Source of the DNA: Cenarchaeum sp.
GTDB lineage: Archaea > Thermoproteota > Nitrososphaeria > Nitrososphaerales > Nitrosopumilaceae
Direction: 5' to 3'
Assembly (NCBI GenBank): GCA_965206845.1
Contig: OZ242221.1
Span: 960,001-1,024,000, forward strand
Length of the DNA: 64,000 nt
The position numbers and the translations under genes were made by a program. The stretch's first letter is position 1. Each line of letters opens with the position of its first letter. This document shows, piece after piece, positions 795-49,632 of the stretch. Under the pieces are notes generated by a model. The model was not told the origin of the DNA, did not search any database, and saw only the letters and a list, made by a program, of their open reading frames with translations.

Positions 795-827
795 GGCGCC
801 TCGTGACACGGTGGAGAAAAAAAGGAG

Positions 828-1250
828 TCAGCCAATAATCTTCTTTATGTTTGAGGTCTGCTCCGGGGCCTTCTTCTTCGCGTAGTTTTCCGCCCACTCC
901 GGCGTGATGACTCCGGCCTCGGTCAGGTTGACAAGGGTGTTTGACGATGCCTCGCCGCTTGCCTTGCCGTTGTACCGCCTTATCTGCCGCCATTTCATGC
1001 TGGTGTTGCCGCTCTTTGAGGTATATATGATTCCCAGAACGTCCCTGGCGTTGACAAAGGTAATGTCCCTGATCTTTTTGAGGGTTGCCTTGTCGGCCGC
1101 CTCCACGTATACGGCGCCCAGCTTCTCGTCCCTCTCCGGAAAGACCTCAAAATCCTCCAGATATCTCCTGGGGGCGTAGGAGCTGCATGTGCTGGTCATG
1201 ATAAACTTCCTAAAACTCTCAAGCGAGCATGGGATCTCAATTTGGGTCAT
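828..1250 (-). CDS. Hypothetical protein (thaumarchaeal type)
   Basis: 140-aa ORF with normal composition; TATA-like GATAAATA about 25 bp upstream. Confidence 0.75.
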   Translation of the reverse strand: MTQIEIPCSLESFRKFIMTSTCSSYAPRRYLEDFEVFPERDEKLGAVYVEAADKATLKKIRDITFVNARDVLGIIYTSKSGNTSMKWRQIRRYNGKASGEASSNTLVNLTEAGVITPEWAENYAKKKAPEQTSNIKKIIG

Positions 1251-1282
1251 TACAACTAAAGAGAGTCAGCTATTTATCAAGT

Positions 1283-1530
1283 TTATCAGAACTCTGTGAA
1301 ATACAGTTGGTGGAACTGCCGTTCCCATTCCGCCTAACCACAGATCCTGTCCTTCTGCAAAGACCGAACCCCCCTGACGGAGAACCGAACCTTCCCCGGA
1401 CTGCCAACAAAGCGGAGTCGCTCTAACTTCAGTCTGTACGCGGGCATGTCTCAAAACATGTCGGGTCGCAAAATCGGTGCCAGAACGGAATCGTTCCGGC
1501 ACCGCCTGCGTTTTACGAAGAACCTGATAA
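1283..1530 (-). ncRNA. Highly structured ~248-nt non-coding RNA, family unassigned
   Basis: 5' UUAUCAGG pairs with 3' UCUGAUAA; internal stems CGGUGCCGGAACG/CGUUCUGGCACCG, GACUG/CAGUC, GUCUUU/AAGGAC, GGAAC-GGCA-GUUCC (GNRA); G-U wobbles favour the minus strand; TATA-like TTAAAAAT at ~1550-1557. Confidence 0.75.
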
Positions 1531-1679
1531 TATAATGTACAAATCAGACATTTTTAACTTGGGAATTCCGGTTCTGTGCAGTCCTGGCGATATGGGCACC
1601 AGTCTCCAGACGGCGCGATGCCACATTCTCCGTTCAGGCGCACACACTTTGGGGAACCTGCCTCAGGCGCGATGCAGCC

Positions 1680-2816
1680 TCATGCTCCGGACGATGTGGC
1701 CAGTCCCTTGCAGAGCATGTATGCCGCAGCATAGCCCGGAACCGTCACCTGCTCGCTGTCATACGGTCCAAACGCGTGGCCCTTCAGCCTAAAGGCCACA
1801 GGGCACCTAGCCGTTACCGTAACCGGCCCGTCGTCCAGAACGCAGGCATCCACGTGGGGATCAAAGGAGTCAAGATCCCCGCACGGCACCTTTGCCATTC
1901 CGCTCTTGCCGTTCAGGGAGTCAGGCATCCTGAAGATTCTGTGCACGTCCGTGGTGACCTGCGGGTCGATCCTGGCCCCTATCGTGCCGGCGATCTCCCT
2001 GAGGCTCCTCTGGTAGCTGTCGTACGCATCGCCGTCAATCTGCGAGATGAACCTTTTGCGGCCCGTCTTGTTTACAAAGATCCCCTTGGCCACGCGCCCT
2101 GCCCATCCGGCATCCCCAAGCTCCGGAAGCGTCTTTTGGAGATCCCTCTTTGGCTGCCGCCTTGTCACCCCAAACCTTTCAGGGACGGCGCCGTTGAACC
2201 GTATATAGTCCACCAGCTCGCCCCGTTCCCTGGAGTTCAGCTGCTCAAAGTGCGGGGCGTGTGCGTGGACGTGAAACCCCTCATTCCCGGAAAAATATAC
2301 CCGAATGCTCCCCTCCGGCATGCCAAAGTCACGGACAAGTATGTCCTCCAGCTTTCGCACCTCCTTCTTGGACGCGTCGATGCAGTCCCTGCAGGCAACC
2401 GACTTGGAGTCGAGCTTTGCAGAGCCGCAGGCGCGGCAGGCAGACGCGTCCCGGGATACGGCCATGCAGTCGCCGCACCGGTACACCGTGTGGCCCGCCC
2501 TGCACTCCAGATTAAGATCCTTTGCGTCGATATCAAAGATGAGATCCGCCCCCTTCCAGTCCTTCTCGTTCATCGGCAGGTCCGGAAAGGAGTAGTATGC
2601 GTTGGAGCAGTAGACGTCAGACGGCGAGTTCGATACCAGCATGACGCGCAGGGCGCCGTCGTCCCTCATGGCCAGGTGCCGGTTCATGCCGCCGTTGAAC
2701 CTCTGGTATCCAAACTCGCGCCGCCCCATCTTGTGCGGCACGTGAATCCTGCCGACGTTCTCAAAATAGTACCTCTTGAAGAGCCCCTCTAGGAGCGCCG
2801 CGTCGTCCTCATTCAT
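1680..2816 (-). CDS. priS: DNA primase small (catalytic) subunit
   Basis: REFG, DLIFDID, FSGNEGFHVH, IDPQVTTDVHRIFRMPDSLN motifs; Zn-ribbon insertion. Confidence 0.95.
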   Translation of the reverse strand: MNEDDAALLEGLFKRYYFENVGRIHVPHKMGRREFGYQRFNGGMNRHLAMRDDGALRVMLVSNSPSDVYCSNAYYSFPDLPMNEKDWKGADLIFDIDAKDLNLECRAGHTVYRCGDCMAVSRDASACRACGSAKLDSKSVACRDCIDASKKEVRKLEDILVRDFGMPEGSIRVYFSGNEGFHVHAHAPHFEQLNSRERGELVDYIRFNGAVPERFGVTRRQPKRDLQKTLPELGDAGWAGRVAKGIFVNKTGRKRFISQIDGDAYDSYQRSLREIAGTIGARIDPQVTTDVHRIFRMPDSLNGKSGMAKVPCGDLDSFDPHVDACVLDDGPVTVTARCPVAFRLKGHAFGPYDSEQVTVPGYAAAYMLCKGLATSSGA

Positions 2817-3828
2817 ACAGCGTACGTCTCCTGCCGAACTGTAGCGGGTTTGTTATGCCGCGGCACTCTGCGGTCTCAAAGCACAGATCGTTGCTCTTTA
2901 TCTTGGTGCACGACGGGCAGACGTATCCGGTTGTGCCGTCGCCCCCGCTGGCGATGTGGTTGAGCTGGTACCGCGTTATCTTCTCGTTATAGTCCGGGGC
3001 GCTCTTGAAGAGAGGCACTATCTCATCCACGGGCGTGCCGCGGGAGAGCAGGTATGATGCCAGCATAAACCGTCCCGAATGCGGCAGGTTCTTGCCGTCC
3101 TCCAGCTCCTTGATGGCATGCTTGATGCACGGGGGATAGCCTACAGATACAATCGGCGCGGTGTAGAACCGTTTTGCCAGCTGGGCCAGCCTCCACACCG
3201 GTTCCTCAAAGTTCGGCAGCATGGGGGGCTGGGCGGCAGACTGGATCCTGTCGGCGATGTATCTGTTCAGCTGCTGCCTGATCAGCCTGACCACCTCGTG
3301 CCGGTTCAGAAACACCTTTCCGCCGTCCACCCGCCGGTTGACCAGCTTCCACGGGAGCTCGTGAAAGAACACGGAGCGGCGGACATAGTCCTGGATCGGA
3401 ATCACAAAGTCCCGCCCCCGTCTCTCTATGCTTACTGAGAAGAGATCCTCAATGATCTTTGTGGCCGGATACTCCTTGGTGGTGTCGCGAAGATCCCCGA
3501 GGTCGCTCTCCAGATAGTGCTCTGCCCTGCGCGATTCCGCCATGACAAACTTGTTGACGAGCGCCCCGGATCTTCCCAGCTTCAGCAGAACCGTGGCTAT
3601 CAGAAACGAGAAGACCTCCATATCCAGCGTATACCCCTCAAGGATCTCTGACTTGTCGACGCCCCCGTCGACGGCTAGCTTTATTCTGTCATATGCCTTC
3701 TCGATGATCTTCTTCAGATCGGGATCGGAGCCGAACTTCTCTATGGTAAAGCTGGGATCCTGAAGATGCCTACCGGCATCGGGAAGAAACGGGTACTTTG
3801 CCATCTCGACAGACCCTATGTCGACCAT
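2809..3828 (-). CDS. priL: DNA primase large subunit
   Basis: AKYPFL, YPPCIK, C-terminal Fe-S cysteines, NPLQF; start trimmed to MVDIG. Confidence 0.92.
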   Translation of the reverse strand: MVDIGSVEMAKYPFLPDAGRHLQDPSFTIEKFGSDPDLKKIIEKAYDRIKLAVDGGVDKSEILEGYTLDMEVFSFLIATVLLKLGRSGALVNKFVMAESRRAEHYLESDLGDLRDTTKEYPATKIIEDLFSVSIERRGRDFVIPIQDYVRRSVFFHELPWKLVNRRVDGGKVFLNRHEVVRLIRQQLNRYIADRIQSAAQPPMLPNFEEPVWRLAQLAKRFYTAPIVSVGYPPCIKHAIKELEDGKNLPHSGRFMLASYLLSRGTPVDEIVPLFKSAPDYNEKITRYQLNHIASGGDGTTGYVCPSCTKIKSNDLCFETAECRGITNPLQFGRRRTLYE

Positions 3829-3891
3829 GAATCGGTTTGCCCGCCTGCGCTTAAAAAGCTGGTTTAAATTATCTGGGAGGAATCCAAGGAC

Positions 3892-4731
3892 ATGAAGGTC
3901 GGCTGCCACGTGTCAATCTCGGGCGGGGTGGACAGGGCAGTCGACAACGCAGTCGAGAGGAAGTGCCTTGCATTTCAGATCTTTACCAGAAATCCCCGCG
4001 GCTGGAGGGCAAAGGAGCTGGGCGAGACGGAGATCTCAGAGTACAGGAGAAAGCTCGACGCAAGCGACATCGACCGGCACGCCACATGCGCCCACATGCC
4101 ATACCTGCCCAACCTGGCATCCACAAACAGCGACGCGCACCAGAAATCCGTAGACACACTCGTCGGCGAGGTCCGGCGGTGCGGGGATCTGGGAATCCCG
4201 TACCTGGTCACGCACTTGGGAAGCCATCTGGGCGCCGGCGAGGAGGCCGGCATCAGGCAGCTGGTCATGGCATACACCAAGGCGGCCGGGGTAAGAAACG
4301 ACGTGACCATTCTGCTGGAGAATACAGCGGGGCAGAAGAACTCCGTAGGCTCGGAGTTTGGCCAGCTGGGATCCATCCTGTCGCAGCTGGAGCCGCAGGA
4401 GCGGTTTGGCGTGTGCATCGACACGTGCCATGCCTTTGTTTACGGGTACGACCTGAGAACCCCGGATGCGGTCAGGGAGGCGTTTGCGAGGTTTGATGAC
4501 GCCGTGGGCTTTGAGCGCCTGAAGATCCTGCACCTGAACGATGCCAGGGGGGAGATGGGCTCCAGGCTGGACCGGCACTATCACATAGGCCTCGGGCACA
4601 TAGGCATGGAGGGCATCGGGGCCGTGGCAAGGCTGGCAGGCAAGAAGGGGATACCCATCATACTCGAGACCCCCATAGACGACACCCGGGACGACTTTGA
4701 AAACATCAGGATAGTCAAGGGGTTAACATAA
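3892..4731 (+). CDS. nfo: Endonuclease IV (AP endonuclease)
   Basis: GCHVSISGG, HMPYLPNL, LENTAGQ, CIDTCH, HLND, DRH, ILETP. Confidence 0.95.
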   Translation: MKVGCHVSISGGVDRAVDNAVERKCLAFQIFTRNPRGWRAKELGETEISEYRRKLDASDIDRHATCAHMPYLPNLASTNSDAHQKSVDTLVGEVRRCGDLGIPYLVTHLGSHLGAGEEAGIRQLVMAYTKAAGVRNDVTILLENTAGQKNSVGSEFGQLGSILSQLEPQERFGVCIDTCHAFVYGYDLRTPDAVREAFARFDDAVGFERLKILHLNDARGEMGSRLDRHYHIGLGHIGMEGIGAVARLAGKKGIPIILETPIDDTRDDFENIRIVKGLT

Positions 4732-11626: not shown

Positions 11627-12377
11627 GGTCGGCGCGGCAGTCCATTCCCAGCGCCGCCAGCTTGCGCGAGAACGCCCCTGCGTCCCCGGACGCAAAGATC
11701 CTAAGCGGGCCCTGCGTCGGGGCGCTCCCGACTCTGGCACCGGCCTGCCGGGCCACATCGTCGGCCGGATCAAGAAACCTCACATCGGGAAACTCTGCCT
11801 CCATCATCCCCCTTAGGAACGGCAGGTGGGTGCTTGACAGCGTGGCCGTGTCGATGCCGCCCTGCCCAAGGCGGTCGGCCAGAACCCGCGAGATCTCCCT
11901 CCGGCAGCGCGGCGCATCCAGCACAAAACCGCCCGACTCCACCAGCCGGATCAGGGGGCTGCAGTTGACGGGCAGGACGGAGATCCCCTCCGGCAGGCGG
12001 CACCCCTCTATGTACCGGCGCAGCTCCGGGCCTGCGGCGACTGATTCGGTTGTGAGGACCGCAACGTTGCCGGTCCCGGTCATACCGGCCGCCCGGCTCA
12101 GTGGCGGATGCACCCCCAGCGTCCTGTCATCAAGGATCTCCGGAAGCAGCAGGGACGGCGTGTTGGAGCCCACTATTACAAGATCCGGCTTGAAGAGTCT
12201 CCGCAGGCCCGCTATGGTTCCCGTGATGATCCGCCCAAGCTCCGCACGGGTCTTGGTTCCGTATGGAAAGCTGTCGGTATCCGCATAGTATATGATCTCC
12301 GAGCGGAGCGTCCGTCGAAGGGGCCCGATAACGGACAGGGAGCCAAGTCCCGAATCAAAGATCGCTATTCTGGGCAT
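11613..12377 (-). CDS. murI: Glutamate racemase-family protein (catalytic Cys replaced by Ser)
   Basis: IAIFDSGLG, FPYGTK, GSNTPS, LSSTHLP; real start MPRIAIF at 12377. Confidence 0.82.
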   Translation of the reverse strand: MPRIAIFDSGLGSLSVIGPLRRTLRSEIIYYADTDSFPYGTKTRAELGRIITGTIAGLRRLFKPDLVIVGSNTPSLLLPEILDDRTLGVHPPLSRAAGMTGTGNVAVLTTESVAAGPELRRYIEGCRLPEGISVLPVNCSPLIRLVESGGFVLDAPRCRREISRVLADRLGQGGIDTATLSSTHLPFLRGMMEAEFPDVRFLDPADDVARQAGARVGSAPTQGPLRIFASGDAGAFSRKLAALGMDCRADPIAL

Positions 12378-12385
12378 AATCACAA

Positions 12386-14566
12386 GGGAATTATATACAT
12401 TAGTGTACAGCACCCATGCCTTTTTCTGGCGCTCTTGCATTGCCTCCCACGCTTGGCTCTCGCGTGCTGTTTGCGGAACGCGCGGGAGCAATCCCGCGCC
12501 GGCTTCTCGCGCCTTCAGACGACCATCCCGGCCGCCCTGCCGTCGCTTTCACGGCAATATTATACGCGGCATTTACGTCCGCGTTGACGTCATTGTCACA
12601 GTTGTAATTGGTGCACCGGAACCTGTCCTGCGATATGCGGGATTCCTTGTCACTGTGGCCGCACCTGTGGCATGTTATGCTGGTGCCCTTGGGGTCCACC
12701 ATTACCACGATCACGCCGGCATTGGCGCACGCGCCCTTGATCAATCGTTGGAACGTGCCGGGCCTTGAGTAGGCCATCTCCCTGTTTAGTCCCGTCTTGG
12801 CGGAGCTTCCCCTTCCCTTGGCGCCCGCGGTCATGTTCACGAGGTTGAGATCCTCCATGGCCACCGTTCCGGCGCCGTCCGCTATCCTCTTGGAGGCGTG
12901 TCGCTCCCAGTTCGTCTGGCGGTTGGCAATCTTTTCCCTCTTTTTCCGGATCTTCCTGTGCAGCTCCTTGTAGCTTCTTGACTTGGTCTTCCTCGGCTTG
13001 TCCCTGTTGCGGCCGCTCGTGTTGTTGCTGCAGCCGCTGCCGCCAGTGCCGTTCCCACCGTCCGCGCTCTTGCTCCCGCCGTCGGAACCTTCCTTGGAAT
13101 CCTGTTTGGTGCGCCTGTTGCCGCGCCCCCCGCGCTTCTGAGAGAGCTCCGAGTACATCTTCGATATGTCGTCGTCCTTTGCCCTCCTGCAGTCATTTGG
13201 GAGGTCGTGGAACTTGTGGCTGCCGGTGCCAAGGTCGACGGTGGCGACGCCGTGGACTATGCCCATGTCGATGCCCCTTATGACCGCGGACTCGGACGGC
13301 TCCGGCGCCTTTATCCTGATCTGGATGTGGAGCCGGTACGTCCTGTTGTGATTCTTAGTGCGCTTCGTGGTCCTCTTGGTCGTCTCGACGAGCTGGAAGG
13401 AGCGCATGTCAAGGTCCTTAACGTCGCCGTGCACCCTCACCATGCCTATGCCGGGAAGGTGCAGCATGCCGTTGCCCTTGTAGACGGGCTTCTCAAAGAC
13501 CGAGAGTGACTTCGCTTCCCCCTTCATGCTGAACAGGGAATCCCTGTGGGTCCATTTGTTCCTCTTGTTGCTCCACTTGTTTGAGGGTAAATTTACAGCG
13601 GTGTCGATGTCCTTGACGCCCTCCTTTTCCCGGTCCCGCCTGGCCAGGTACTTCCACAATGACTTGTTGCGGCGCTTTTTGCCGTTTGATATTACGAACT
13701 TTTGAACGGCGTCCAGGCCCAGCAGGAGCCCCGCCCTCTGCACCATGCAGCTGCAGGCCTCCTTGCGTCCAGCGGCCAGCGCCTCCTTGTCATGGACCAG
13801 CCACCCGTTTGCGTCCCTCCATTTGGTGAGCATCTTGTTGAGGTCGAACTTGGTTGTCCTCGGGTCGTTGAGCTTCTCCCTGACGGCCATGTTGAACGCC
13901 CACCTCTGCGGGTCCATGTGGCGCGATATGAGATCCGACAGCTCCGCCGACTGGTCAAAGTCCACCTTTATGTTGCGTATCATGGCGCCATCCATTAGGC
14001 GCCTTGACCACTTTTTTGGCGCCGGCTCGGTTGCGGCTGCCGTTGCATCCGCCTGCTCCGTTGCCACTGCTGCCGCCTCCGCCATGATGGGTTTCATTAC
14101 GCATTCAATATGCCATGCGCATAAAAACACCGCGACAACACTATCATTAGTGTGCAGACCATGCTGACCGTCCGCACTGTCATATCCATCGTTTCCGCCG
14201 CGCCTGTCCGCGCGGTTCCGGCCGCCACGGTGCGGCGCCGGCACCCGCTGGAACGGCCATCATGGCGGAAGGCCCGAAAAGGACGGGTTTTGGCCGCTTT
14301 TGAATGCAGTTCCCGCCTTGCAATGCCGGACCGGTCCGGGACGGCGCCTTAAATACGGATCCGGCATTTGCCCGCGTGAAAGGCGCGACCAGACCGCCGC
14401 CTTCCTGGGCTTTTGCCTGCCTCGGGATGCCTGCCGGCGCCGGAAAACCCGGGACAGCCATCGGCCAGTCATGAACCGGGAAGACCGGTCTGCGGACCGC
14501 ATTATCGGCCTGGACGGGAGGCCCCGGACATGCGGCGGCGGCTGTTCACTTAACTATATAATTCCC
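12386..14566 (-). mobile_element. TnpB-only element with TIRs and 8-bp TSD (copy 1, 2181 bp)
   Basis: Ends GGGAATTATATAcattAGTGtACAGC / GGGAATTATATAgttaAGTGaACAGC (inverted); AATCACAA directly repeated at 12378-12385 and 14567-14574. Confidence 0.92.
12400..14097 (-). CDS. tnpB: TnpB-like RNA-guided endonuclease, ~565 aa
   Basis: RuvC-I GIDMG, RuvC-II MEDLNL, TSITCHRC..FRC..C zinc finger, RuvC-III NADVNAAYNI; start MKPIM aligned with copy 2, TATA-like TTTTTATG ~25 bp upstream. Confidence 0.92.
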   Translation of the reverse strand: MKPIMAEAAAVATEQADATAAATEPAPKKWSRRLMDGAMIRNIKVDFDQSAELSDLISRHMDPQRWAFNMAVREKLNDPRTTKFDLNKMLTKWRDANGWLVHDKEALAAGRKEACSCMVQRAGLLLGLDAVQKFVISNGKKRRNKSLWKYLARRDREKEGVKDIDTAVNLPSNKWSNKRNKWTHRDSLFSMKGEAKSLSVFEKPVYKGNGMLHLPGIGMVRVHGDVKDLDMRSFQLVETTKRTTKRTKNHNRTYRLHIQIRIKAPEPSESAVIRGIDMGIVHGVATVDLGTGSHKFHDLPNDCRRAKDDDISKMYSELSQKRGGRGNRRTKQDSKEGSDGGSKSADGGNGTGGSGCSNNTSGRNRDKPRKTKSRSYKELHRKIRKKREKIANRQTNWERHASKRIADGAGTVAMEDLNLVNMTAGAKGRGSSAKTGLNREMAYSRPGTFQRLIKGACANAGVIVVMVDPKGTSITCHRCGHSDKESRISQDRFRCTNYNCDNDVNADVNAAYNIAVKATAGRPGWSSEGARSRRGIAPARSANSTREPSVGGNARAPEKGMGAVH

Positions 14567-14661
14567 AATCACAACACATTCTGGTTTTGTTAGCTAAATT
14601 TAGTCTAGGGTTGATCTAAATATACCCCTCTCATTAAGAGTGCAATACTAGACTGCCAATT

Positions 14662-25044: not shown

Positions 25045-26267
25045 ATGAAGAAGATAGGACAGTTCATCTATCCGTGGGGAAACGGCCACTACACCAGAAT
25101 GATGCGGCTCAACGAGGTCCTGGCCGATCACATACGCGAGGATATCCAGATCCACATCTCGACCAAGCCGCCCATATATGAGAAGATCCTGGCCCACTCC
25201 CGGTACCGGGCGCACAACATACTGATGCCGACCCCCATCGACGGCCGGTTCGGTCCCAGCGTCTGGCGGTCCCTGCTGAACCTGCTTCTGCCGGTGGAGG
25301 GGAACCCGCCCCTGGTAAGGCAGATCGCCTGCTACCTCAGGGAGGAGGGCAGGCTCTACAACCGCGAGCACTTTGATATTGTGATCAATGACGGCGACAT
25401 GGGCTCAAACATCATCGCCAGCAGGCGAAACGTGCCCAGCCTCTTTGTGACAAACCAGTTCAAGCCAAGGCTCTGGAGATCCAGGTTCTACTTTTATCCC
25501 GCGGTGAGCTACGTTGCAAGGCAGATCGCCCGGGCGTCCCAGATACTGGTGGCCGACTCGGCGCCGCCCTACACCATGTGCGAGTACAACCTGAACCTCC
25601 CCGACAGCCTAAAGGGCCGGGTCTCCTACGTGGGGCACTTTACGGGCAGGCATGTGCCCAGGGGGGAGCCCACAGACCTGGAGAGGCTGATCGCGGATGC
25701 GGAGTTTGGATACTGGATGAGAACGGGCAACAGGTCCACCAATGACGGCACCGGATCCCGATACCGGCAGATATTTGCCATGCCGGAGATGGCAGGCGAG
25801 CGCCGCATAGTCTCCCACGCCAGGGACGACCCCGCAATCGATTGCGTTACGGGGAGGGACAAAAGGAGGTACTCCGTATCCGAGGCGCTGGAGAGGAAGG
25901 TGGACTGGATTCAGATAGACATCGGGTTTCTCTCCGAGCAGGAGAAGGAGTCGGTGCTGGAGCGGTGCCTGTATGCCGTGATAAACGGCTCGCATACGGT
26001 AATGGGGGAGATCCTGGGCGGCAAGTCAAAACCGGTGATTGGAATCCCCATATACGACGAGCACACAAACCAGCTGAGATGGGCCCAGGAGCGAAACCTG
26101 GGCATACTGGCAAGAAACGCCAGGCAGGCGGTGGAGGGGATCCGGCGGATCAGATCCAGCTACGCCACGTTCCAGGAGGCCCTGGCGGCTTTGCGGCCAA
26201 CTTTGACGGCGAGGGGGCGCGCAACACGGCCCGGATCGCCGCGCAGGTCCTTGAAAGCAAGAAATAG
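25045..26267 (+). CDS. GT-B (GT28-like) glycosyltransferase, apparent single-base frameshift at ~26184
   Basis: GNGHYTR, INGSHT.MGE, KPVIGIP..DEH..Q; natural-looking C-terminus GGFAANFDGEGARNTARIAAQVLESKK lies in another frame. Confidence 0.75.
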
Positions 26268-26497
26268 CGCCGCGCCACAGGTACCGTGCCCGGCACGCAA
26301 CACTTCGATGGGCTAGCTGACCTTAGGGGATGAAGACACAATGCGCGTGCCGGGCTCCTCGATACTGGGGGGCTGGCCCGCCTGTGCCGTGAGGCCCCCG
26401 CTCAGAAGGGCTCCCACACCCGGTTCGGGGCGGCGGGCGTCCAGACGCTACGTCCACATCAGAACGCTTTTATGGAAAATATAAATTTGATAATAAG

Positions 26498-26803
26498 ATG
26501 CCTAACTGCCCCGAATGCACCGCTAGAGAGAAAAAGAAGATCCAGGCGAGATACGAGGCAGAGACGCTCCTGGAGGATCGGAACAGGGATGACCTGATCA
26601 AGATGTTTGATCAGATCGAGCTGTTCATGAAGTTTGAGTCAAGGACAAAGCACTTTGTCTGTCCCAAGTGCGGCCTTTACGCAACCCGGGAACAGGTGGG
26701 TGACATCAGGGCAAAGCTCAACCAGCGCGAGTACACCAAGGAAGACAAGCAGTACGACTATCAGCAGTGGTGGCAGAAGAGCAAGAGCGAGAAGCAGGAG
26801 TAA
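26498..26803 (+). CDS. Small Zn-finger hypothetical protein
   Basis: CPEC and CPKC motifs; TATA TATAAA upstream. Confidence 0.8.
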   Translation: MPNCPECTAREKKKIQARYEAETLLEDRNRDDLIKMFDQIELFMKFESRTKHFVCPKCGLYATREQVGDIRAKLNQREYTKEDKQYDYQQWWQKSKSEKQE

Positions 26804-26809
26804 CGCCAC

Positions 26810-27175
26810 ATGGCCAAAGACGAGATCCCGGGCTGGATTCAGGACGAGATACGCAGCGCCAAGTTTGAGGAGCCGGAGCAGATGACTCGCACCGGATACA
26901 TACTGGACATCTTTGATGAGGACAACAAGATCGACGCGCAGTTCTACGATCCCGTAGCAGACGGCAGGCACATAATAACGCTGGACGTGCCTGGAGAGAT
27001 CGGAACCGGCACCCTGGAGAAGGGGGTGGTCTACGAGTTCAAGCTTGACTCGTGCATGGCGCCGCTGTCCGAAAAGGCGGCGCAGTTTCTCAAGGTCGAG
27101 AAGGGCATAGAGATGAATGCCATATACCAGTTCACGCTCAGGGACGCGGCTCTTCTGGAGCAGGACTCGGGCTAG
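26810..27175 (+). CDS. Hypothetical protein
   Basis: 121-aa acidic ORF, operonic with upstream gene. Confidence 0.75.
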   Translation: MAKDEIPGWIQDEIRSAKFEEPEQMTRTGYILDIFDEDNKIDAQFYDPVADGRHIITLDVPGEIGTGTLEKGVVYEFKLDSCMAPLSEKAAQFLKVEKGIEMNAIYQFTLRDAALLEQDSG

Positions 27176-27959
27176 ACTCTGCGGAGCCGATGCCGCGAAA
27201 CGACGAGCCCAGCATCGGGTTTATCAGGTACGGCAGGGTCTGCTTGAGCCATACCACGCCGCGAACCGTCGACGGCACGACTATCTCCAGGCGCGAGGAC
27301 GCGGATGCCTTGACTATCGCCCGGGCGACCCTCTTGGAGCTTATCGCGTAGGGCTTGCGCCGCATCTTTCCAAACGAGGAATGGTCAAAAAAGTTTGTCC
27401 GTACCGTGATCGGGCTCACAACCGTGACACCAACGCCGGTCTCGTGGAGCTCGTGCTTGAGCCCCTCAGAGAAGCCAAGCATCGCAAACTTTGAGGCGCA
27501 GTACGGCGCCATGCCGGGCAGCCCGACGCTTGCCGCAACGGATGCGACGTTTACTATGTGGCCACGGTTCCGCTTGATCATACCGGGAAGAAAGCCCTTC
27601 GTGCAGTAGACCATGCCAAAGTAGTTCGTCCTCATCTGACCCTCGATCTCCCCGACGCTCAGCTGGGAGACAGTGCCGTACACGGCATAGCCTGCATTGT
27701 TTACCAGAACGTCGACCTGGCCGAACCTGTCCAGGACCTGCCGCGCCATCTCCGAGACCTGGCCGCTGTCAGACACGTCGCATGTCATGGCCTCGGTCTT
27801 GCCGATCCCTGCAAGCTCTTCTCGCGCCCGCTCGAGCCTGTCTGCATTCCGGGATACCATGACCACGCGGGCTCCCCTGTCTGCAAACTCAAAGGCCGCT
27901 GCCGCGCCTATTCCGCTGGACGCGCCCGTGATTACCACTATCTTGTCCCTAAGATTCAC
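27138..27959 (-). CDS. Short-chain dehydrogenase/reductase
   Basis: TGASSGIG, LVNNAG, YCASK. Confidence 0.93.
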   Translation of the reverse strand: MNLRDKIVVITGASSGIGAAAAFEFADRGARVVMVSRNADRLERAREELAGIGKTEAMTCDVSDSGQVSEMARQVLDRFGQVDVLVNNAGYAVYGTVSQLSVGEIEGQMRTNYFGMVYCTKGFLPGMIKRNRGHIVNVASVAASVGLPGMAPYCASKFAMLGFSEGLKHELHETGVGVTVVSPITVRTNFFDHSSFGKMRRKPYAISSKRVARAIVKASASSRLEIVVPSTVRGVVWLKQTLPYLINPMLGSSFRGIGSAESSPSPAPEEPRP

Positions 27960-28980
27960 TGTGTTTACTGGTGCCGGTCTTGGTATATTTGCCTAGTGCG
28001 AAGCGGAAGAGCATGACCCAGGTGACGACAATCGGGAGGTAGTATGTGGCGATCCGCCAGGCGATCACCGCGTTCCACTCCAGCGCCTCTTCTAGCACGT
28101 CAAAGTTGAAGGGATCCAGGTTGTTGATGTACGCCACTATGCCAAACTCGGTCAGGCCGGATCCGCCCACGGTGATGGGCAGGTTCCCGATGGCGTTGGC
28201 CCCCATCACCGCCATGATCGAGTCAAACGGCTCGATGGATATGCCGATCCCCGATGCGATTATCATAAACGAGATGCCGTAGAAGAACCAGGATGCCAGG
28301 GACAGCATGAATGCGTTTACAAACAGCTTCTTGGACTTGGCCGTTCCCATGTTCTCCCTGGATATGGTGCACACCTCGTCCATCCAGTGGTTGGTCTGGG
28401 TGACATATCTCTGGCCGCGCTCCTTCGCAAATCTTGCGACGAGCCGCGCAATGCCCCCGGGAACTTGGAAGGTGCGCTTTGATGACATGAAGAAGAGTAG
28501 CACCCACATGGACGTAACCGCTATGCTGGTTGCAAGTATTATGGTGGCCACTATGTACGCCCCGCTGGCGAGCGCGACGATCCCCGCAATCATGGAGAGC
28601 ACGCCCCCGGCCAGCACCTCGGTCACTATGTCAAGTATGGCAACCCACACGGCCTTGGGCGGCGGGACGCCCTTCTTGTGCAGCCAGTATATCACGACAA
28701 ACTCGGCCCCTATGAACATGGGGGTCGTGAACTTGATGAACTCGCTTCCAATCCTGATGCCGGCTATCCTCCAGATCGAGTCTATGCGGCCCACCTGGTG
28801 TCTTATTATGTAGGAGAGCTTGATGCCCTGCAGGCCCAGCTTTGCCATCATCGCCAGCGCCGCCAGGGCAAAGGGAACCGCCCCCACCGCCAGCACGTCC
28901 TCCAGGCGCACGTCAAACCGGATGATGATTACTACGATTGGGATCATGCTGGCCAGAATGGCCACGGGCCTCCAGTTCAC
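27949..28980 (-). CDS. UPF0104 / lysylphosphatidylglycerol-synthase-TM flippase-like protein
   Basis: Multi-TM, TTP.FIGAE, LPITVGGSGLTEFG, WRIATYYLP. Confidence 0.85.
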   Translation of the reverse strand: MNWRPVAILASMIPIVVIIIRFDVRLEDVLAVGAVPFALAALAMMAKLGLQGIKLSYIIRHQVGRIDSIWRIAGIRIGSEFIKFTTPMFIGAEFVVIYWLHKKGVPPPKAVWVAILDIVTEVLAGGVLSMIAGIVALASGAYIVATIILATSIAVTSMWVLLFFMSSKRTFQVPGGIARLVARFAKERGQRYVTQTNHWMDEVCTISRENMGTAKSKKLFVNAFMLSLASWFFYGISFMIIASGIGISIEPFDSIMAVMGANAIGNLPITVGGSGLTEFGIVAYINNLDPFNFDVLEEALEWNAVIAWRIATYYLPIVVTWVMLFRFALGKYTKTGTSKHSES

Positions 28981-29036
28981 TCTCTGATTCGTTATCAGTT
29001 CAAATATAAGCCAATAATTGCCGACAGCAAAGAGGT

Positions 29037-29795
29037 GTGAAGCTGGTTCTTCTTGAGGGTACGGCGGGCTCTGGTAAGTCCCTTCTTGCCTCGCGGCTGA
29101 GCGACTACTATGCGAAGAATGGCGCCTTTGCCGCCACCCTCAACCTGGATCCCGGCGTGGAGGAGCTTCCCTATACCTGCGATGTGGACGTGCGTGATAT
29201 GGTCAGCACCGCATCGGTGATGCGGGACTACGGGCTGGGGCCCAACGGCGCCGTGGTAATGGCAAACGACATCATCGCATCCAGGCTGGACCAGCTGCAG
29301 GAGGAGATAGATACGATAAACCCCGAGTACCTGATAGTGGATACGCCGGGCCAGATCGAGCTGTTCGCGTACCGCATCAGCGGCCCCCTGCTGGTTCGGG
29401 AGCTGACGGCCGACCAGAAGACCGGGATATTCCTGTACGACGGGGCCCTCGTCAACACCCCGGCAAACTTTGTCTCCATTGCGCTGTTGGCCACCTCCAT
29501 CCGGCTGAGGCTGGGAATCCCGGCGGTCAACGCGGTCACAAAGACCGATCTCATCGGTGACCGGCTGGGGGAGGTCATGAGGTGGGCCTCTGACCTGTCG
29601 GCCCTGGAGGCTGCCATCGCGCAGACGTCTGACGGCGAGGCCTACTCCCTTGCGACGGGAATTCTTCGGGGACTGGATATGGGGGGCTTTGCCCAGGGAC
29701 TGGTGCCCATATCCAACGTTACGGGGGAGGGGATGCCGGAGCTGGAGGCGTCCCTGAACAGAATCATTAATCTTGGAGAGGAGGCAGGGAATTAG
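29037..29795 (+). CDS. GPN-loop GTPase
   Basis: GTAGSGKS, NLDPG, GLGPNGA, DTPGQIELF. Confidence 0.93.
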   Translation: MKLVLLEGTAGSGKSLLASRLSDYYAKNGAFAATLNLDPGVEELPYTCDVDVRDMVSTASVMRDYGLGPNGAVVMANDIIASRLDQLQEEIDTINPEYLIVDTPGQIELFAYRISGPLLVRELTADQKTGIFLYDGALVNTPANFVSIALLATSIRLRLGIPAVNAVTKTDLIGDRLGEVMRWASDLSALEAAIAQTSDGEAYSLATGILRGLDMGGFAQGLVPISNVTGEGMPELEASLNRIINLGEEAGN

Positions 29796-31792: not shown

Positions 31793-32344
31793 CTAGATGT
31801 CTTCGGCGGGCCTGCGTATCATGGCCACGATGGCCTCCTTCTCCTCCCTGCTCTCATATATGCCCCGGAACACCGATGTGGCCATCCGTGCGTCGTTTCT
31901 GACGCCCCTCATCTTCATGCATAGGTGCTCTGCCTCCACAAGGACCGCAACCCCCTTGACGCCCTGGGCCTGCATCTCGTTGGCGATGCTCCGGGTCATC
32001 CTCTCCTGGATCTGAAGGCGCCTGGAGTACTTTTCCACCAGCCGCACCATCTTGGATATCCCAAAGACCCGCCCGTTGGGCGAGTATGCAATGTGGACCT
32101 TGCCAAAGAACGGCAGCATGTGGTGCTCACACATGGAGTAGAACTGGATTCCCTTTGCTACTACCGTGTCCGAGTCCTCGGAGAACTGGACTGACAGCTC
32201 GGAGTTCGAGTCATAGCCGCCAAAGATCTCACTGTACATATCGGCAATGCGTCGCGGCGTCTCCCGCAGTCCCTCCCTGGTGGGATCCTCGCCTATCTCA
32301 ATTATCAGCTCGCGTACAAGCTTCTGCACCCGTTCCCAATCCAT
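31793..32344 (-). CDS. folE: GTP cyclohydrolase I
   Basis: [41 protein letters not shown]; alternative GTG start at 32356. Confidence 0.95.
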
Positions 32345-32389
32345 CACTGTTCCCACAGCGATTCCACTAATATTTGAAGCTAAAGGGAA

Positions 32390-34042
32390 TTATATACAAA
32401 AGTACACAGTACCTTTGCCTTTTGCTGGCGCTCTTGCAATCCCCCCCACGCTTGGCTCTCGCGTGTTGTCTGGGGAACGCCCGGGAGCAATCCCGCGCTG
32501 GTGTCTCGCGTCTTTGGACGACCTTCCCGGCCGCCCTGCCGCCTTGGCTGTTGCCTTGGAGGCAATGTTATACGCGGCATTGATGTCCGCGTTGACGTCA
32601 TTCTCACATCTGTCATTGGTGCACCGGAACTCACCCCGCGACACCCTGGATTCCTTGTCGGTGCGGCCGCACCTGTGGCATGTGATGCTGGTGCCCTTGG
32701 GGTCCACCATTACCACGATCACGCCGGCATTGGCGCACGCGCCCTTGATCAATCGTTGGAACGTCCCGGGCCTTGAGTAGGCCATCTCCCTGTTTAGCCC
32801 CGTCTTGGCGGAGCTTCCCTTGCCCTTGGACTTGGCTGTCATGTTGTTGAGGCTGAGGTCCTCCATGGCCACCGTTCCCGCGCCGTCCGCTATCCTCTTG
32901 GACGCGTGCCTTTCCCAGTTGGTCTGGCGGTTGGCAATCTTTTCCCTCTTTTTCCGGATCTTCCTGTGCAGCTCCTTGTAGCTTCTTGACTTGGTCTTCC
33001 TCGGCTTGTCCCTGTTGCGGCCGCTCGTGTTGTTCCCGCCGTTAGTGGTTTTGCTTCCACTGTCAGCATCTTCCTTACTGTCCTGTTTGGTGCGCCTGTT
33101 GCCGCGCCCCCCTCGCTTCCTTGAGATCTCGGAATACATCTTGGATATGTCGTCGTTCTTCGCCCTCCTGCAGTCCTTTGGGAGGTCGTGGAACCTGTGG
33201 CGGCCGGTATCGAGGTCCGCCGTGGCGGCGCCGTGCACTATGCCCATGTCCACGCCCCTGACGACCGTGGATTCGGACGGCTCCGGGGCCTTGGTTTCAA
33301 CCTGGATGTGGAGCCTGTACGTCCTGTGGCGGTCTTTGGTGCGTTTCGTGGTCTTCTTCGTCGTCTCGACGAGCTGGAAGGAGAGCATGTCAAGATCCTC
33401 CACATCGCCGTGCACCCTTACGGTGCCTATGCCGGGGAGCATCACCGTGTTGTCGCCCTTGTAGACGGGCTTCTCGAAGACCGAGAGGGACCGCTGCTCC
33501 CCCTTCCTCTTGAACAGGGAATCCCTGTGGCGCCACTTGTTCCTCTTGTTGCTCCACTTGTTCGACGGCAAATTTACAGCAGTGTCAATATCCGGTATCC
33601 CCTCCTTTTCCCGGTCGAGCCTAGCCAGGTACTTCCATAATGACTTGTTGCGGCGCTTTTTGCCGTTTGATATTACGAACTTTTGAACGGCATCCAGGCC
33701 CAGCAGGAGCCCCGCCCTCTGCGCAAGGAAGCCGCCCTCTATCCATTCCTTCCCATGTCTCCATCCGGTGAGCATCTTGTTGAGGTCAAACTTGGTTGTC
33801 CTCGGGTCGTCCAGCTTCTCCCGCACCGCCATGTTGAACGCCCACCGCTGCTGGTCCATTCGGCAGGATATGAGATCCGACAGCTCCGCCGACTGGTCAA
33901 AGTCCACCTTTATGTTGCGTATCATGATGCCCTCCATTGGGCGCCTTGACCACTTTTTTGGAGCCGGCTCGGTTGCGGCTGCGGTTGCGTCCGCCTGCTC
34001 CGTTGCTGTTGCTGCTACTACCTCTGCCATGACGGATTTCAT
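32390..34042 (-). CDS. tnpB: TnpB-like RNA-guided endonuclease, 550 aa
   Basis: GVDMG, MEDL, TSITCHRC..FRC..C, NADINAAYNI; stop codon lies inside the TIR. Confidence 0.93.
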   Translation of the reverse strand: MKSVMAEVVAATATEQADATAAATEPAPKKWSRRPMEGIMIRNIKVDFDQSAELSDLISCRMDQQRWAFNMAVREKLDDPRTTKFDLNKMLTGWRHGKEWIEGGFLAQRAGLLLGLDAVQKFVISNGKKRRNKSLWKYLARLDREKEGIPDIDTAVNLPSNKWSNKRNKWRHRDSLFKRKGEQRSLSVFEKPVYKGDNTVMLPGIGTVRVHGDVEDLDMLSFQLVETTKKTTKRTKDRHRTYRLHIQVETKAPEPSESTVVRGVDMGIVHGAATADLDTGRHRFHDLPKDCRRAKNDDISKMYSEISRKRGGRGNRRTKQDSKEDADSGSKTTNGGNNTSGRNRDKPRKTKSRSYKELHRKIRKKREKIANRQTNWERHASKRIADGAGTVAMEDLSLNNMTAKSKGKGSSAKTGLNREMAYSRPGTFQRLIKGACANAGVIVVMVDPKGTSITCHRCGRTDKESRVSRGEFRCTNDRCENDVNADINAAYNIASKATAKAAGRPGRSSKDARHQRGIAPGRSPDNTREPSVGGIARAPAKGKGTVYFCI

Positions 34043-34064
34043 TACGCATTCAATATGTCATACG

Positions 34065-34072
34065 TATAAAAA
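34065..34072 (-). promoter_or_regulatory. TATA box of tnpB (leaderless transcript)
   Basis: TTTTTATA 23-30 bp upstream of ATG; equivalent motif at the same spacing in copies 1 and 3. Confidence 0.65.
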
Positions 34073-34292
34073 CACCGCGACAACACCATGCAGACCATGC
34101 AAACAGTCCGCACCGCCGCGACCATTATTTCCGCCGCGCTTGCCTGTGCTGTTCCTCCAGCCACTGGCGCCGCGCCGGCATCTGGCAGGAATGGCGCGCC
34201 GGAAGGAAAGCCGGAAAATGATGAAAGCATTGTGTACTTTTGTATATAATTCCCAAGCTAAACGGTCGCAGCCGCGGATGCCCGGCCGGGCT

Positions 34293-35639: not shown

Positions 35640-35779
35640 AAGATGTGATTCGTAATTAGCACGCAGGCACATTAGAGCACGATCTTTGGCATAATCATAC
35701 GAAAGTTGCATGCTTTGGAGCACACATCTGTAAGATTATGGGCATCGAAGGCCCGATTCTTAATTGCGGATCATGTCTC
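35640..35779 (+). mobile_element. 140-bp MITE, copy A
   Basis: Near-identical to 48274-48413 and (inverted) 49301-49440; imperfect 19-bp TIR (G)AGATGTGATTCGTAATTA / TAATTGCGGATCATGTCTC. Confidence 0.88.
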
Positions 35780-47721: not shown

Positions 47722-47920
47722 CATAATAGCTTAGGTCGCCGCCTGATCGGATCCACTGGATATTTCTGACCGTTTTGTGCAGGTTTGGGCATAAATTACG
47801 GCAAATACGATAAAATTTGCAGGCCTGGCCATGCCCAATCCGACGCCCCACAGGCGTGACGGGCGCGGCTTGGCTGCAATCCCAACTTTAATAAAAAAAC
47901 GATTTCTGCTGTCCTACAGT

Positions 47921-47994
47921 GGGTCTATGGCTCAGCCAGGTAGAGCACCGGACTCTTAATCCGGCTGTCGGGGGTTCGAATCCCTCTAGACCCG
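47921..47994 (+). tRNA. tRNA-Lys(CTT)
   Basis: GGGTCTA/TAGACCC acceptor stem, CT-CTT-AA loop, GGTTCGAATCC. Confidence 0.95.
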
Positions 47995-48017
47995 CCCACC
48001 ATACGCCAACTAAAATA

Positions 48018-48273
48018 GGGAATTATATACTTCGGTAGGCATAACCGGGGAATTACATACAAAAGTAACCAAAATTCCTGCCTTTTTGGCGCTCCCTTTC
48101 GCGCGCCGTCCTTGTTAGATGCCGGCGCGTCATCCGTGGCGGCCGTAATCGCACGGACAAGCATAACGGGATGGATGGCCATGACAGTGCGGACTGTCCG
48201 CATGGTCTGCATGGTATTGTCGCGGCGCTTTTATGCGATGTGAAATATTGCATGTGGTAATGAAATCAATCAT
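48018..48273 (+). mobile_element. Truncated 5' end of the TnpB/TIR element (copy 3)
   Basis: GGGAATTATATAC at 48018 and GGGAATTACATACAAAAGTA at 48048, leader homologous to copies 1/2, ATG AAA TCA ATC ATG (MKSIM) at 48260, then cut by the 140-bp MITE. Confidence 0.88.
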
Positions 48274-48413
48274 GAGATGTGATTCGTAATTAGCACGCAG
48301 GCATATTAGAGCACGATCTTTGGCATAATCATACGAAAGTTGCATGCTTTGGAGCACACATCTGTAAGATTATGGGCATCGAAGGCCCGATTCTTAATTG
48401 CGGATCATGTCTC
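48274..48413 (+). mobile_element. 140-bp MITE, copy B
   Basis: Near-identical to copy A. Confidence 0.9.
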
Positions 48414-49300
48414 TGAAGCCGAATAGTGCCTTTTCACACAGGATCAAGGGGAAATCACTGCAGGCGCTCGGGGACCACCGGGAGGCGGTAGCGGGCCTTG
48501 ATGAGTCGATAAGGCTGGATCCTAGGAACGCCCCTGCGCACGCGGCCAAGGGGAAATCGCTGCAGGAGCTCGGGAAGTACCGGGAGGCGGTAGCGTGCCT
48601 TGATGTAGCAGTTGGGCTGAACCCGGAATACTCCTTTGCGCATGCGACCAAGGGAATATCGCTGCAGGCTCTCGGAAGACGCCGGGAGGCGGTAGCGTGC
48701 TTTGATGAGACACTAAGGCTGGATCCGAAGAATGCCTTTGCATACGGAACCAAGGGAAGATCGCTACAGGAGCTTGGGAGATACGAGGAGTCGTTGACGT
48801 GCCTTGACAGGGCGGTAGATCTGAGCCCGAACTACCCCTTTGCGCACGTGGCCAAGGGAATATCACTGCAGGCGCTCGGAAGACACCGGGAGGCGATGGC
48901 GTGCCTTGATGAGGCAATTGGGCTGAAGCCGGACTACTTTGCGCATGCGACCAAGGAGAGACTGCTGCAGGGGCTCGGGAAGACGCCGGAAGGCGATAGC
49001 GTGCCCTGACGGGTCGATAAGGCTGGATCCGGCGAATGCCCATGCATGTGGGGCCAAAGTGCGTGTCGCTGTAGAGGCCTGGAAGCACCGGGAGGCGATA
49101 GCGTGCCTTGGTGAGGCAATGGCGCCTGATCCATCTTGTGCCTTTGTGCATGGGGCGTGCGAAGGCGGGTTTTCCGGCCTTGGCCCCGGAACAAGGCACT
49201 GCCTCGTGGACACGATGGCGCTGCTGCCGACGTGCCAAGGCGATCCCGGTGTTGTTGGGGGTGCCAAACTGGGACTGCACGGTGCCGCCCTCATACTGCT
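48414..49300 (+). pseudogene. TPR-repeat protein fragment
   Basis: About seven 34-aa (102-bp) repeats KG.SLQ.LG...EA.AC.D.A..L.P; 5' end missing, frameshift near 48977, decayed 3' units. Confidence 0.85.
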
Positions 49301-49440
49301 GAGATGTGATCCGCAATTAAGAATCGAACCTTCGATGCCCATAATCTTACAGATATGTGTTCCAAAGCATGCAACTTTCGTATGATTATGCCAAAGATCG
49401 TGCTCTAATGTGCTTGCGTGCTAATTACGAATCACATCTC
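49301..49440 (-). mobile_element. 140-bp MITE, copy C (inverted)
   Basis: Reverse complement of copies A/B with a few substitutions; ends GAGATGTGAT / ATCACATCTC. Confidence 0.9.
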
Positions 49441-49632
49441 TGGACAGGATCATCAGCGAGGCCGCGCACGGGCACGGCAAGCCTGCTTGTCTCAGAATAT
49501 TACAGGACGTTTGCAGACATGTGCAATGCAATCATCACGTACTACAGAACCGTGAGGTTTAAGCTGGACATAGTCAGATACGCCAGCGGAAATCCAAAAT
49601 TATTCTGTACAAAACTTATGATCGGCGCTATA
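49441..49632 (+). pseudogene. Probable IS630-family transposase C-terminal remnant and right end
   Basis: LLVSEYYRTFADMCNAIITYYRTVRFKLDIVRY resembles archaeal IS630 C-termini; putative end ...ATGATCGGCGCTATA ending in TA. Confidence 0.55.

Follow-up and report, generated by a model that had tools for sequence, protein, structure and literature searches.

A predicted TnpB guide-RNA scaffold ending at the inverted-repeat tip of IS1595-ended elements in a Cenarchaeum genome

The window analysed here, a stretch of 64,000 nucleotides from a Cenarchaeum sp. genome (contig OZ242221.1, positions 960,001 to 1,024,000), contains two copies of a transposon in which tnpB runs into one of two inverted-repeat ends. 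The locus poses the question of whether that end also encodes a guide RNA (omegaRNA) for TnpB and, if so, where the guide would begin and which target-adjacent motif (TAM) would be recognized. The best explanation of the locus as a whole, which we consider probable, is an omegaRNA scaffold of about 215 nt in a non-autonomous transposon with IS1595-type ends, together with the guide mechanism inferred below.

The host genome is a single contig of 1.65 Mb with 57% G+C. Copy 2 of the element, to which most of the analysis refers, occupies window positions 32385-34254 (1870 nt) and is TnpB-only, with tnpB on the minus strand as the sole long sense-strand frame, filling the element, and with no transposase gene. 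Its 45-nt right terminal inverted repeat (TIR; 32385..32429), which holds the tnpB stop codon and a helix (H8, below), is 80% complementary to the 45-nt left TIR (34210..34254). A perfect 8-bp target-site duplication (TSD), TTTAGCTT, was noted at 32377-32384 on the right and at 34262-34255, read on the minus strand, on the left; the region 34255..34263 comprises this left copy and a G at 34263, the candidate TAM position. Copy 1 (2181 nt, 12386..14566, minus strand) has its left TSD at 14567-14574 and a G at 14575, and with its left end corrected to window position 14566 the 8-bp TSD, TTGTGATT, becomes perfect. Sixteen copies with complete 3' ends (75-100% identity), together with fragments, are present in the genome, and TnpB elements of the family have TIRs of 12-45 nt and TSDs of 8 bp. 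Another genome of the same genus, G006, has no element at the orthologous position upstream of folE, where a single TSD-like copy is present.

The sequence-only reading of this locus had drawn attention to strings conserved between copies 1 and 2 behind the RuvC-III codons, to a copy-2 stop codon within the TIR and to the flanks TTTAGCTTCAAATATT (copy 2) and TTGTGATTATGCCCAG (copy 1) as guide sources. The strings are present in both copies, which align at 88% mean column identity, the TAA is located 5 nt inward from the element end and the flanks read as written. The conservation was also real, but its length, put at about 170 nt, had to be extended to about 215 nt with a start inside the RuvC-III codons. 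In an alignment of these last ~215 nt from the 16 copies (A3), RNAalifold indicated a structure of 47 pairs in eight helices (-62.9 kcal/mol) with compensatory changes in nine pairs. The predicted scaffold of copy 2 thus extends on the minus strand over 32385..32599, beginning in the RuvC-III codons and reaching the final base of the right TIR, and contains helices H1 (32591-32585/32578-32573), H2 (32564-32561/32540-32537), H3 (32536-32529/32523-32516), the long-range helix H4 (32512-32508/32431-32427), H5 (32496-32491/32486-32481), H6 (32477-32474/32446-32443), H7 (32465-32461/32451-32447) and, within the TIR, H8 (32418-32410/32404-32396), followed by an unpaired tail (32395-32385). The corresponding scaffold of copy 1 (12386..12592, minus strand) is 9 nt shorter in the variable linker between the strands of H2.

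Support for this structure was evident from comparisons with column shuffles of the same alignment. Thus, 97.9% of 748 pair cells hold a pair, compared with 91.6 +/- 0.6% in shuffles, cells changed on both sides number 46 compared with 16.0 +/- 3.2, and the covariation score is 0.226 compared with 0.112, values that were reached in none of 500 shuffles in each case. When pairing partners were slid by 1-3 columns as a control, pairing fell to 35-50% and double-change cells to 1-5. Pairs 86/102 and 89/99 are G-U in 16/16 copies and 202/225 in 14/16, and because such frequent G-U pairs would be A-C on the opposite strand, the fold belongs to the tnpB strand only. Folded as a single sequence, copy 2 reaches -84.7 kcal/mol (z score -3.36), with 0/200 shuffles equally stable. 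The covarying structure that the sequence-only reading had made the touchstone of its proposal was therefore found, strand-specific and continuous from the RuvC-III codons to the TIR tip across 16 copies.

The relation of this structure to the reading frame, of which the scaffold overlaps the last ~55 codons, points in the same direction. H1 lies inside the RuvC-III codons (N-A-D-I-N-A-A) and switches from G-C to C-G in 6/16 copies by two synonymous changes of Ala codons, the pair being broken in 0/16. Mean pairwise variability at the three codon positions is 0.17/0.14/0.35 in upstream tnpB and 0.15/0.17/0.12 over the final 157 nt of the frame, a loss of the third-position excess behind RuvC-III which indicates that the tail evolves as RNA and not as protein. 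A covariance model of the kind that the sequence-only reading had suggested (R1, from the 16 copies of alignment A3) matches the 3' end of tnpB in 28/28 loci of relatives, with scores from 247 to 13.7 bits. The parts kept in these relatives are helix 1, helix 3 (GGGCGGC-N-GGGAW-N-GTCGTCC) and the long-range helix 4, in which GGCGC/GCGCC is replaced by GACGG/CCGTC in one genus group (the G099 group), while the central domain is replaced.

The protein encoded upstream of and across the scaffold has the features of a TnpB nuclease. The open reading frame of copy 2 (32390..34042, minus strand; 550 aa, P0001) matches the Cas12f1-like TNB domain of Pfam (PF07282, 2.1e-15), and its match to OrfB_IS605 (PF01385), at 24.6 bits, is under the 30.5-bit cut-off. 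Full-length frames of 542-589 aa are kept in 11 copies, in all of which RuvC residues D265, E394 and D486 and zinc-finger residues C455/C458/C474/C479 are invariant; the frame is shifted or extended in copies c491, c1188, c129 and c755, all four of which are counted in the 97.9% pairing. Among 201 genomes of the host's family, 11 contained matches, but close relatives of this long TnpB were confined to the host genome; matches outside G000 had no more than 45% identity and covered only part of the protein. A scan of genome contigs returned one locus only. A protein database yielded 152 homologues at E <= 1e-20, with 53-100% identity among the 120 listed. A metagenome scan with the TnpB alignment gave 41 pattern-matching stretches and 0 relatives, and a second, which used the scaffold's DNA pattern, returned 0 matches.

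Several results temper the case for a guide-RNA scaffold. Pairs with changes on both sides number 10 compared with 8.0 in shuffles, a value that 63/500 shuffles reach, and further pair types number 29 compared with 27.3 (107/500); moreover, shuffle counts overstate significance because the copies are kin within one genome. Coding sequence makes up about 50 positions of R1 and inflates its scores in relatives, where the weakest matches have E values of 0.001-0.004 under a rough calibration. Rfam gave no match, the only two hits being at chance level (E 4.8 and 8.7) and both on the other strand. A translated tail is possible in view of a frame that is open up to the TAA in the TIR in 10/16 copies. 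RNA-library data, consisting of contigs of the public sponge metatranscriptome runs X4, X6 and X7 (recorded as RNA) and X1 (guessed to be RNA), gave scattered pieces of 43-241 nt at 93-100% identity, in which DNA may be present. Run X6 contributed two contigs of 59-61 nt at window 32472-32532, contigs in which RNA ends are not readable, and one 976-nt contig of run X7 stops in the flank (window 32253-32337); no piece crossing the right end into the flank was noted among the contigs of the four runs.

Two explanations that dispense with a guide RNA have to be set against these data. The open frame in 10/16 copies, and the location of H8 within the TIR, with a mirrored counterpart at the left end of copy 2, would be expected if there were no functional RNA at all and the conservation reflected a coding tail of TnpB plus transposase sites or hairpins in the DNA of the right end. 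The tail, however, shows no excess of variability at third positions; compensatory changes are seen in helices that lie beyond the TIR, and the pairs are often G-U. The region, moreover, belongs to the right end alone, exceeds the TIR in length by about 170 nt and keeps its modules in genera with differing tail peptides, all of which makes this explanation very improbable. An equally slight chance is assigned to a structured element of the tnpB message akin to a 3' untranslated region, which would act in stability, termination or translational control. Although the demonstration extends only to a structured 3' end of the message, its position, size of ~215 nt, overlap with RuvC-III and end at the transposon boundary agree with those described for TnpB guide RNAs (PMC10691335 and PMC10711439), and the nuclease residues are intact in 11 copies. 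Thus, the flagged stretch is very probably a TnpB guide-RNA scaffold (omegaRNA, or reRNA) that ends at the TIR tip, an assignment which we regard as well supported by comparison of the copies.

Where the scaffold ends bears on where the guide begins. The loop of H3, which in copy 2 reads GGGAA (32524..32528, minus strand), is GGGAA or GGGAU in 16/16 copies, and a GGGAW, GGAAU or GGAGU loop was noted in 20/28 loci of relatives with stems that differ wholly between clades. The motif is complementary to UUCCC or AUUCC, the final bases of the TIR, of which UUCCC forms the last 5 nt of the copy-2 scaffold (32389-32385). We therefore propose as a candidate pseudoknot that the TIR tip would pair with the H3 loop, that is, positions of about -135 with -1 to -5. 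In locus L059 the changed tip GUCCC pairs with an upstream GGGAC in the minimum-energy fold, which with a z score of -0.71 is no better than shuffles. On the other side of the balance, the bases concerned are nearly invariant and the GGGAU loop of many copies would make four pairs, not five; because the bases hardly vary, the pseudoknot keeps the status of a candidate. If it is right, its use of the last 5 nt of the TIR would place the end of the scaffold at the element boundary, and the guide would start with the duplicated target.

That the guide of TnpB is taken from the right flank is established (PMC10691335, PMC10711439). For copy 2 the predicted guide, at an assumed length, is TTTAGCTTCAAATATTAGTG (32365..32384, minus strand) and for copy 1 TTGTGATTATGCCCAGAATA (12366..12385, minus strand), the first 8 nt being the right TSD copy in each. 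A guide beginning at flank base +1, and hence with the TSD, is about an even chance.

The flank on the opposite side supplied a candidate TAM. With flanks read on the tnpB strand and position -1 defined as the base directly 5' of the left TSD, G was found at -1 in 15/15 copies of this genome that retain a left end (c755 has none), in the single TnpB element of locus L032, in 12/12 elements of clade A in genome G099 and in 4/5 of clade A in genome G064. In total, a logo of TSDs and flanks over 33 elements, an analysis which the sequence-only reading had also recommended, showed G at -1 in 32/33 (binomial P about 4e-18, with the 26% G across positions -12 to -2 as the reference), and none of the positions from -12 to -2 stands out. 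Its statement that the flanks share no obvious TAM accordingly does not hold. The TT-N4-TT pattern that it saw in both TSDs is not general, other copies having TGATCAAC, TAACGAAG and CGTAACCG, and its idea of a TAM supplied by the excision footprint is disfavoured in that TSD position +8, the TAM position in such a footprint, is not conserved (A16 C4 G5 T8). Other TnpB clades of the same genomes, with the same GGGAATTAT tip, have G at -1 in only 5/19 elements. The base thus tracks the lineage of TnpB and omegaRNA and not the end sequence, which is the behaviour expected of a TAM. The chances that G at -1 is the TAM of this TnpB are nearly balanced.

This assignment is itself open to objection on several grounds. 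The clade groups follow TnpB identity (at least 78% to the query versus 29-35%) but were drawn after the flanks had been seen, and a TAM of one base would be unusual for TnpB. In addition, among elements of the IS1595 family that carry only a DDE transposase, 4/9 have G on the flank that lies upstream of the transposase gene, a count from which six loci with no forward tip upstream of the gene (L143, L148, L149, L154, L160 and L161) were left out, so that the transposase may have a partial preference of its own.

Such a preference, if it alone accounted for the G as a choice of target site or orientation by the IS1595-type transposase, would make the base unrelated to recognition by TnpB, an explanation that we hold to be rather unlikely. 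The 4/9 DDE-only elements with the same tip, which include both copies of the G099 element, agree with it, as does the situation in IS605 and IS607 elements, whose transposase determines the target motif that the TAM matches (PMC13565253). Against it, the bias is one-sided: C follows the right TSD directly in just 5/16 copies of this genome, so that there is no mirror image of the G and a symmetric target preference was rejected. The G also follows the TnpB/omegaRNA clade (32/33 versus 5/19) and not the common TIR tip; moreover, a transposase preference would be compatible with reading the G as a TAM because TAMs usually equal the target motif of the transposon. A similarly low probability attaches to the possibility that the omegaRNA is real but its guide does not start at the TSD, flank or TSD bases instead belonging to the scaffold or the TAM as they do in IS607 TnpB and Fanzors. 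The TAM would then consist of the G with the initial TSD bases (about 5'-G-T-W-W-W), and the start of the guide would lie within or after the duplication. This would fit the composition of the TSD, in which +1 is T in 27/33 elements and +2, +3 and +4 are A or T in 28, 30 and 27 of 33, as well as the inclusion of one right-flanking base in the scaffold of ISXfa1 (PMC10711439) and of the TSD in the scaffold of eukaryotic transposons with TIRs and TSDs (PMC13565253). The TSD here is, however, 8 bp long and variable and cannot be a fixed part of a scaffold; TSDs of DDE-only IS1595 elements are AT-rich as well (ATAATTTT, ATTTTTTT, CAATTTTA), so that the transposase alone may cause the AT-richness; and the candidate pseudoknot would put the end of the scaffold at the element boundary, as in IS200/IS605.

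If the G is nevertheless the TAM and the guide starts with the TSD, the parts of the locus can be joined in a model. Transcription of tnpB would read through the right end into the flank, and TnpB would bind the structured 3' part of the transcript, in which the UUCCC tip and the GGGAW loop of helix 3, ~135 nt upstream, would form the pseudoknot. The next ~16-20 nt, beginning with the right TSD copy, would serve as guide, and its DNA target would be the unoccupied allele, in which the TSD and right flank are preceded by G. The filled site would be spared, as the right junction has the final C of the TIR before the TSD and the left junction matches the guide over 8 nt only. Cutting of empty alleles could then lead to copying of the element into them by recombination, that is, to homing or retention. 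Insertions that last mainly where G is present would explain the near-invariance of this base in three TnpB clades. In its full form, which would be an adaptation of a prokaryotic TnpB to a DDE cut-and-paste transposon not described so far, with the TIR tip doubling as a pseudoknot strand, the 8-bp TSD as the seed of the guide and a single G versus C telling empty from filled sites, the model is tentative, and we think it somewhat more likely to be wrong than right.

The transposon that carries this putative system has ends of IS1595 type. DDE-bearing elements of the IS1595 family in sister genomes have the TIR tip GGGAATTAT and AT-rich TSDs of 8 bp in common with it; among these, L147 and L151 carry PF12762, the tip GGGAATTATA and perfect TSDs, and the shared tip is also present in L144 and L152. 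The ISfinder consensus for ISNwi1, a member with similar ends, is presumably 'ggnnatTAT'. The only IS1595 transposase gene of the genome, an intact frame of 309 aa (PF12762, 1.3e-34), lies outside the element in locus L031 (genome positions 26126-29539). One end, GGGGCTTATATCGCTGAGTACAC, was recognizable 35-55 nt upstream of its start; a first TIR motif search around this gene found none, a looser look found this one, and no second end was found. Just downstream of the gene, inverted pairs of another type (GGGCTCTG...) resemble miniature inverted-repeat transposable elements. The tnpB-only content and a lone IS1595 transposase with one end imply that the elements are non-autonomous and may be immobile now. 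They are thus non-autonomous cut-and-paste transposons, either derivatives or cargo cassettes with IS1595-type ends. A further point against a working system is that the genome contains no intact cognate transposon, so that the system may be a fossil here.

Two other affiliations were considered and rejected. The relative in L032 (positions 216-4382 of a contig titled as a Dehalococcoidia metagenome-assembled genome), a 4167-nt element of the family whose TnpB is 74% identical and whose tnpB frame is interrupted somewhere from about 3907 to 4000, contains an IS66-family DDE transposase (443 aa, PF03050, 4.9e-26), which might have made it the partner and the TnpB-only copies deletion derivatives. 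This transposase is not the partner because it is part of a nested insertion sequence (IS), one that has a separate TIR (GTAACAG..) and a separate TSD, TTCGGTAG. The IS66-family IS is nested in the left end of the L032 element, and the same type occurs in genome G064 with 8-bp duplications. The accessory protein of IS66 that is also called TnpB is unrelated. Membership in the IS200/IS605 family (IS1341 group) was rejected on the presence of TIRs and 8-bp TSDs, since elements of that family have neither, show asymmetric ends with subterminal hairpins and insert 3' of a fixed 4-5-nt motif (PMC13565253).

Compared with known guide RNAs, the predicted scaffold combines features of several systems. 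A guide from the flank, a multi-helix scaffold of ~200 nt and a pseudoknot with the last bases, the counterparts of which are predicted or candidate features here, characterize the omegaRNA of IS200/IS605 elements. That RNA (ISDra2 type) is likewise of the sense strand, overlaps the 3' end of tnpB and has a scaffold ending at the right boundary (PMC10711439), from which the present case differs in its TIRs and 8-bp TSDs, in a scaffold whose 3' end is the TIR itself, in a candidate TAM of a single G as opposed to a T-rich motif of 4-5 nt, and in the absence of an Rfam match. In the reRNA of ISXfa1 (IS607), which the candidate pseudoknot resembles in geometry, a base at about -130 pairs with the last bases before the guide (U-130/A-3), and the TAM is G-rich (GGG) and tied to insertion chemistry (PMC10711439). 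There, one right-flanking base belongs to the scaffold of an element with no TIR or TSD, whereas here a variable 8-bp duplication starts the flank. The guide RNAs of Fanzor1 and Fanzor2* also serve nucleases of the TnpB family in DDE cut-and-paste transposons and overlap the right TIR (PMC10530073), with a TAM that often agrees with the insertion site (PMC13565253, PMC10530073). Their TSD, unlike that described here, is short and fixed (TA, TTAA) and acts as the TAM on the 5' side and as scaffold on the 3' side, and a TSD of 8 variable bp can play neither of these roles; the host here is, moreover, prokaryotic. Members of the IS1595 family with ISNwi1-like ends share the tip GGGAATTAT and the AT-rich 8-bp TSDs with the present elements, in which the family's own DDE transposase is absent and tnpB fills the element.

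That TnpB occurs between inverted ends of DDE type, and that solo copies exist, was reported in 2023 on computational grounds by Altae-Tran et al., who described DDE-associated TnpB flanked by inverted terminal repeats, with the 3' end no more than 250 bp from the end of the transposon, and solo TnpBs that have the same ends and are presumably mobilized in trans (PMC10691335). The passages of that paper on DDE-associated TnpB give no omegaRNA structure, guide start or TAM; IS630, for DDE-6, is the only family named in its main text, where neither IS1595 nor IS66 appears, although its supplements may list an IS1595-linked branch. A 2026 review lists ISL2, IS630 and IS1031 for DDE-linked TnpB, states that obligate mobile element-guided activity (OMEGA) systems outside IS200/IS605 and IS607 need mechanistic work, and suggests that inflexible target recognition may explain the rarity of such pairings (PMC13565253). 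Among the papers listed by full-text searches for TnpB with IS1595 or with IS66, none describes this pairing as judged by titles and abstract openings. New in the present analysis are the covarying scaffold, its putative closure by the TIR tip, the variable 8-bp duplication that would be needed in the guide and the clade-specific G. RNA-guided TnpB working with prokaryotic DDE transposons is largely unstudied, and the family offers a concrete case for experiments with its ~215-nt scaffold, predicted pseudoknot, TSD-containing guide and one-base candidate TAM, present at 32/33 independent insertions. If the TAM were indeed a single G, the enzyme would merit attention as a compact tool for genome editing with few targeting constraints.

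Observations of a different kind concerned related mobile elements in other genomes. Genome G099 contains, in loci L147 (266-2396) and L151 (266-2396), two copies of a 2131-nt IS of the IS1595 family that carries tRNA-Leu(CAA) as cargo, encodes a transposase of 316 aa and is bounded by perfect 8-bp duplications. In genome G064, loci L085-L090 hold a distinct TnpB clade with the tip GGGAATTATCGG and GC-rich 8-bp TSDs; G at -1 was found in 0/6 of these elements, whose target preference thus differs from that of the clades studied.

Within the host genome, left ends of the elements fall into three sequence types beyond the common 12-nt tip (..CAAAAGTACAC, ..GTTAAGTGAAC and ..CTTCGGTAGGCAT). Copy 1 has an outer left end that differs in type, GGGAATTATATAGTTAAGTGAAC, and a decayed inner left end persists ~290 nt inside it. 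The decayed inner end and the existence of three left-end types suggest that elements were nested in the past into one another's ends and later moved with the outer end. Nesting was also noted at 48018..48260 (plus strand), where left-end fragments of two further TnpB elements of the family, with neither a tnpB body nor an omegaRNA, directly follow tRNA-Lys(CTT) (47920-47998). The inner fragment has the same flank as the copy at genome position 1333850, and these do not therefore represent independent insertions. Three repeats of ~140 nt, at window 35641-35779, 48275-48413 and 49301-49444, are 93-99% alike, one being inverted, and match the leader (~518-650) that precedes the gene for the IS66-type transposase in L032. 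A tandem array of about seven 102-nt units (window 48413-49160) lies between two of these repeats.

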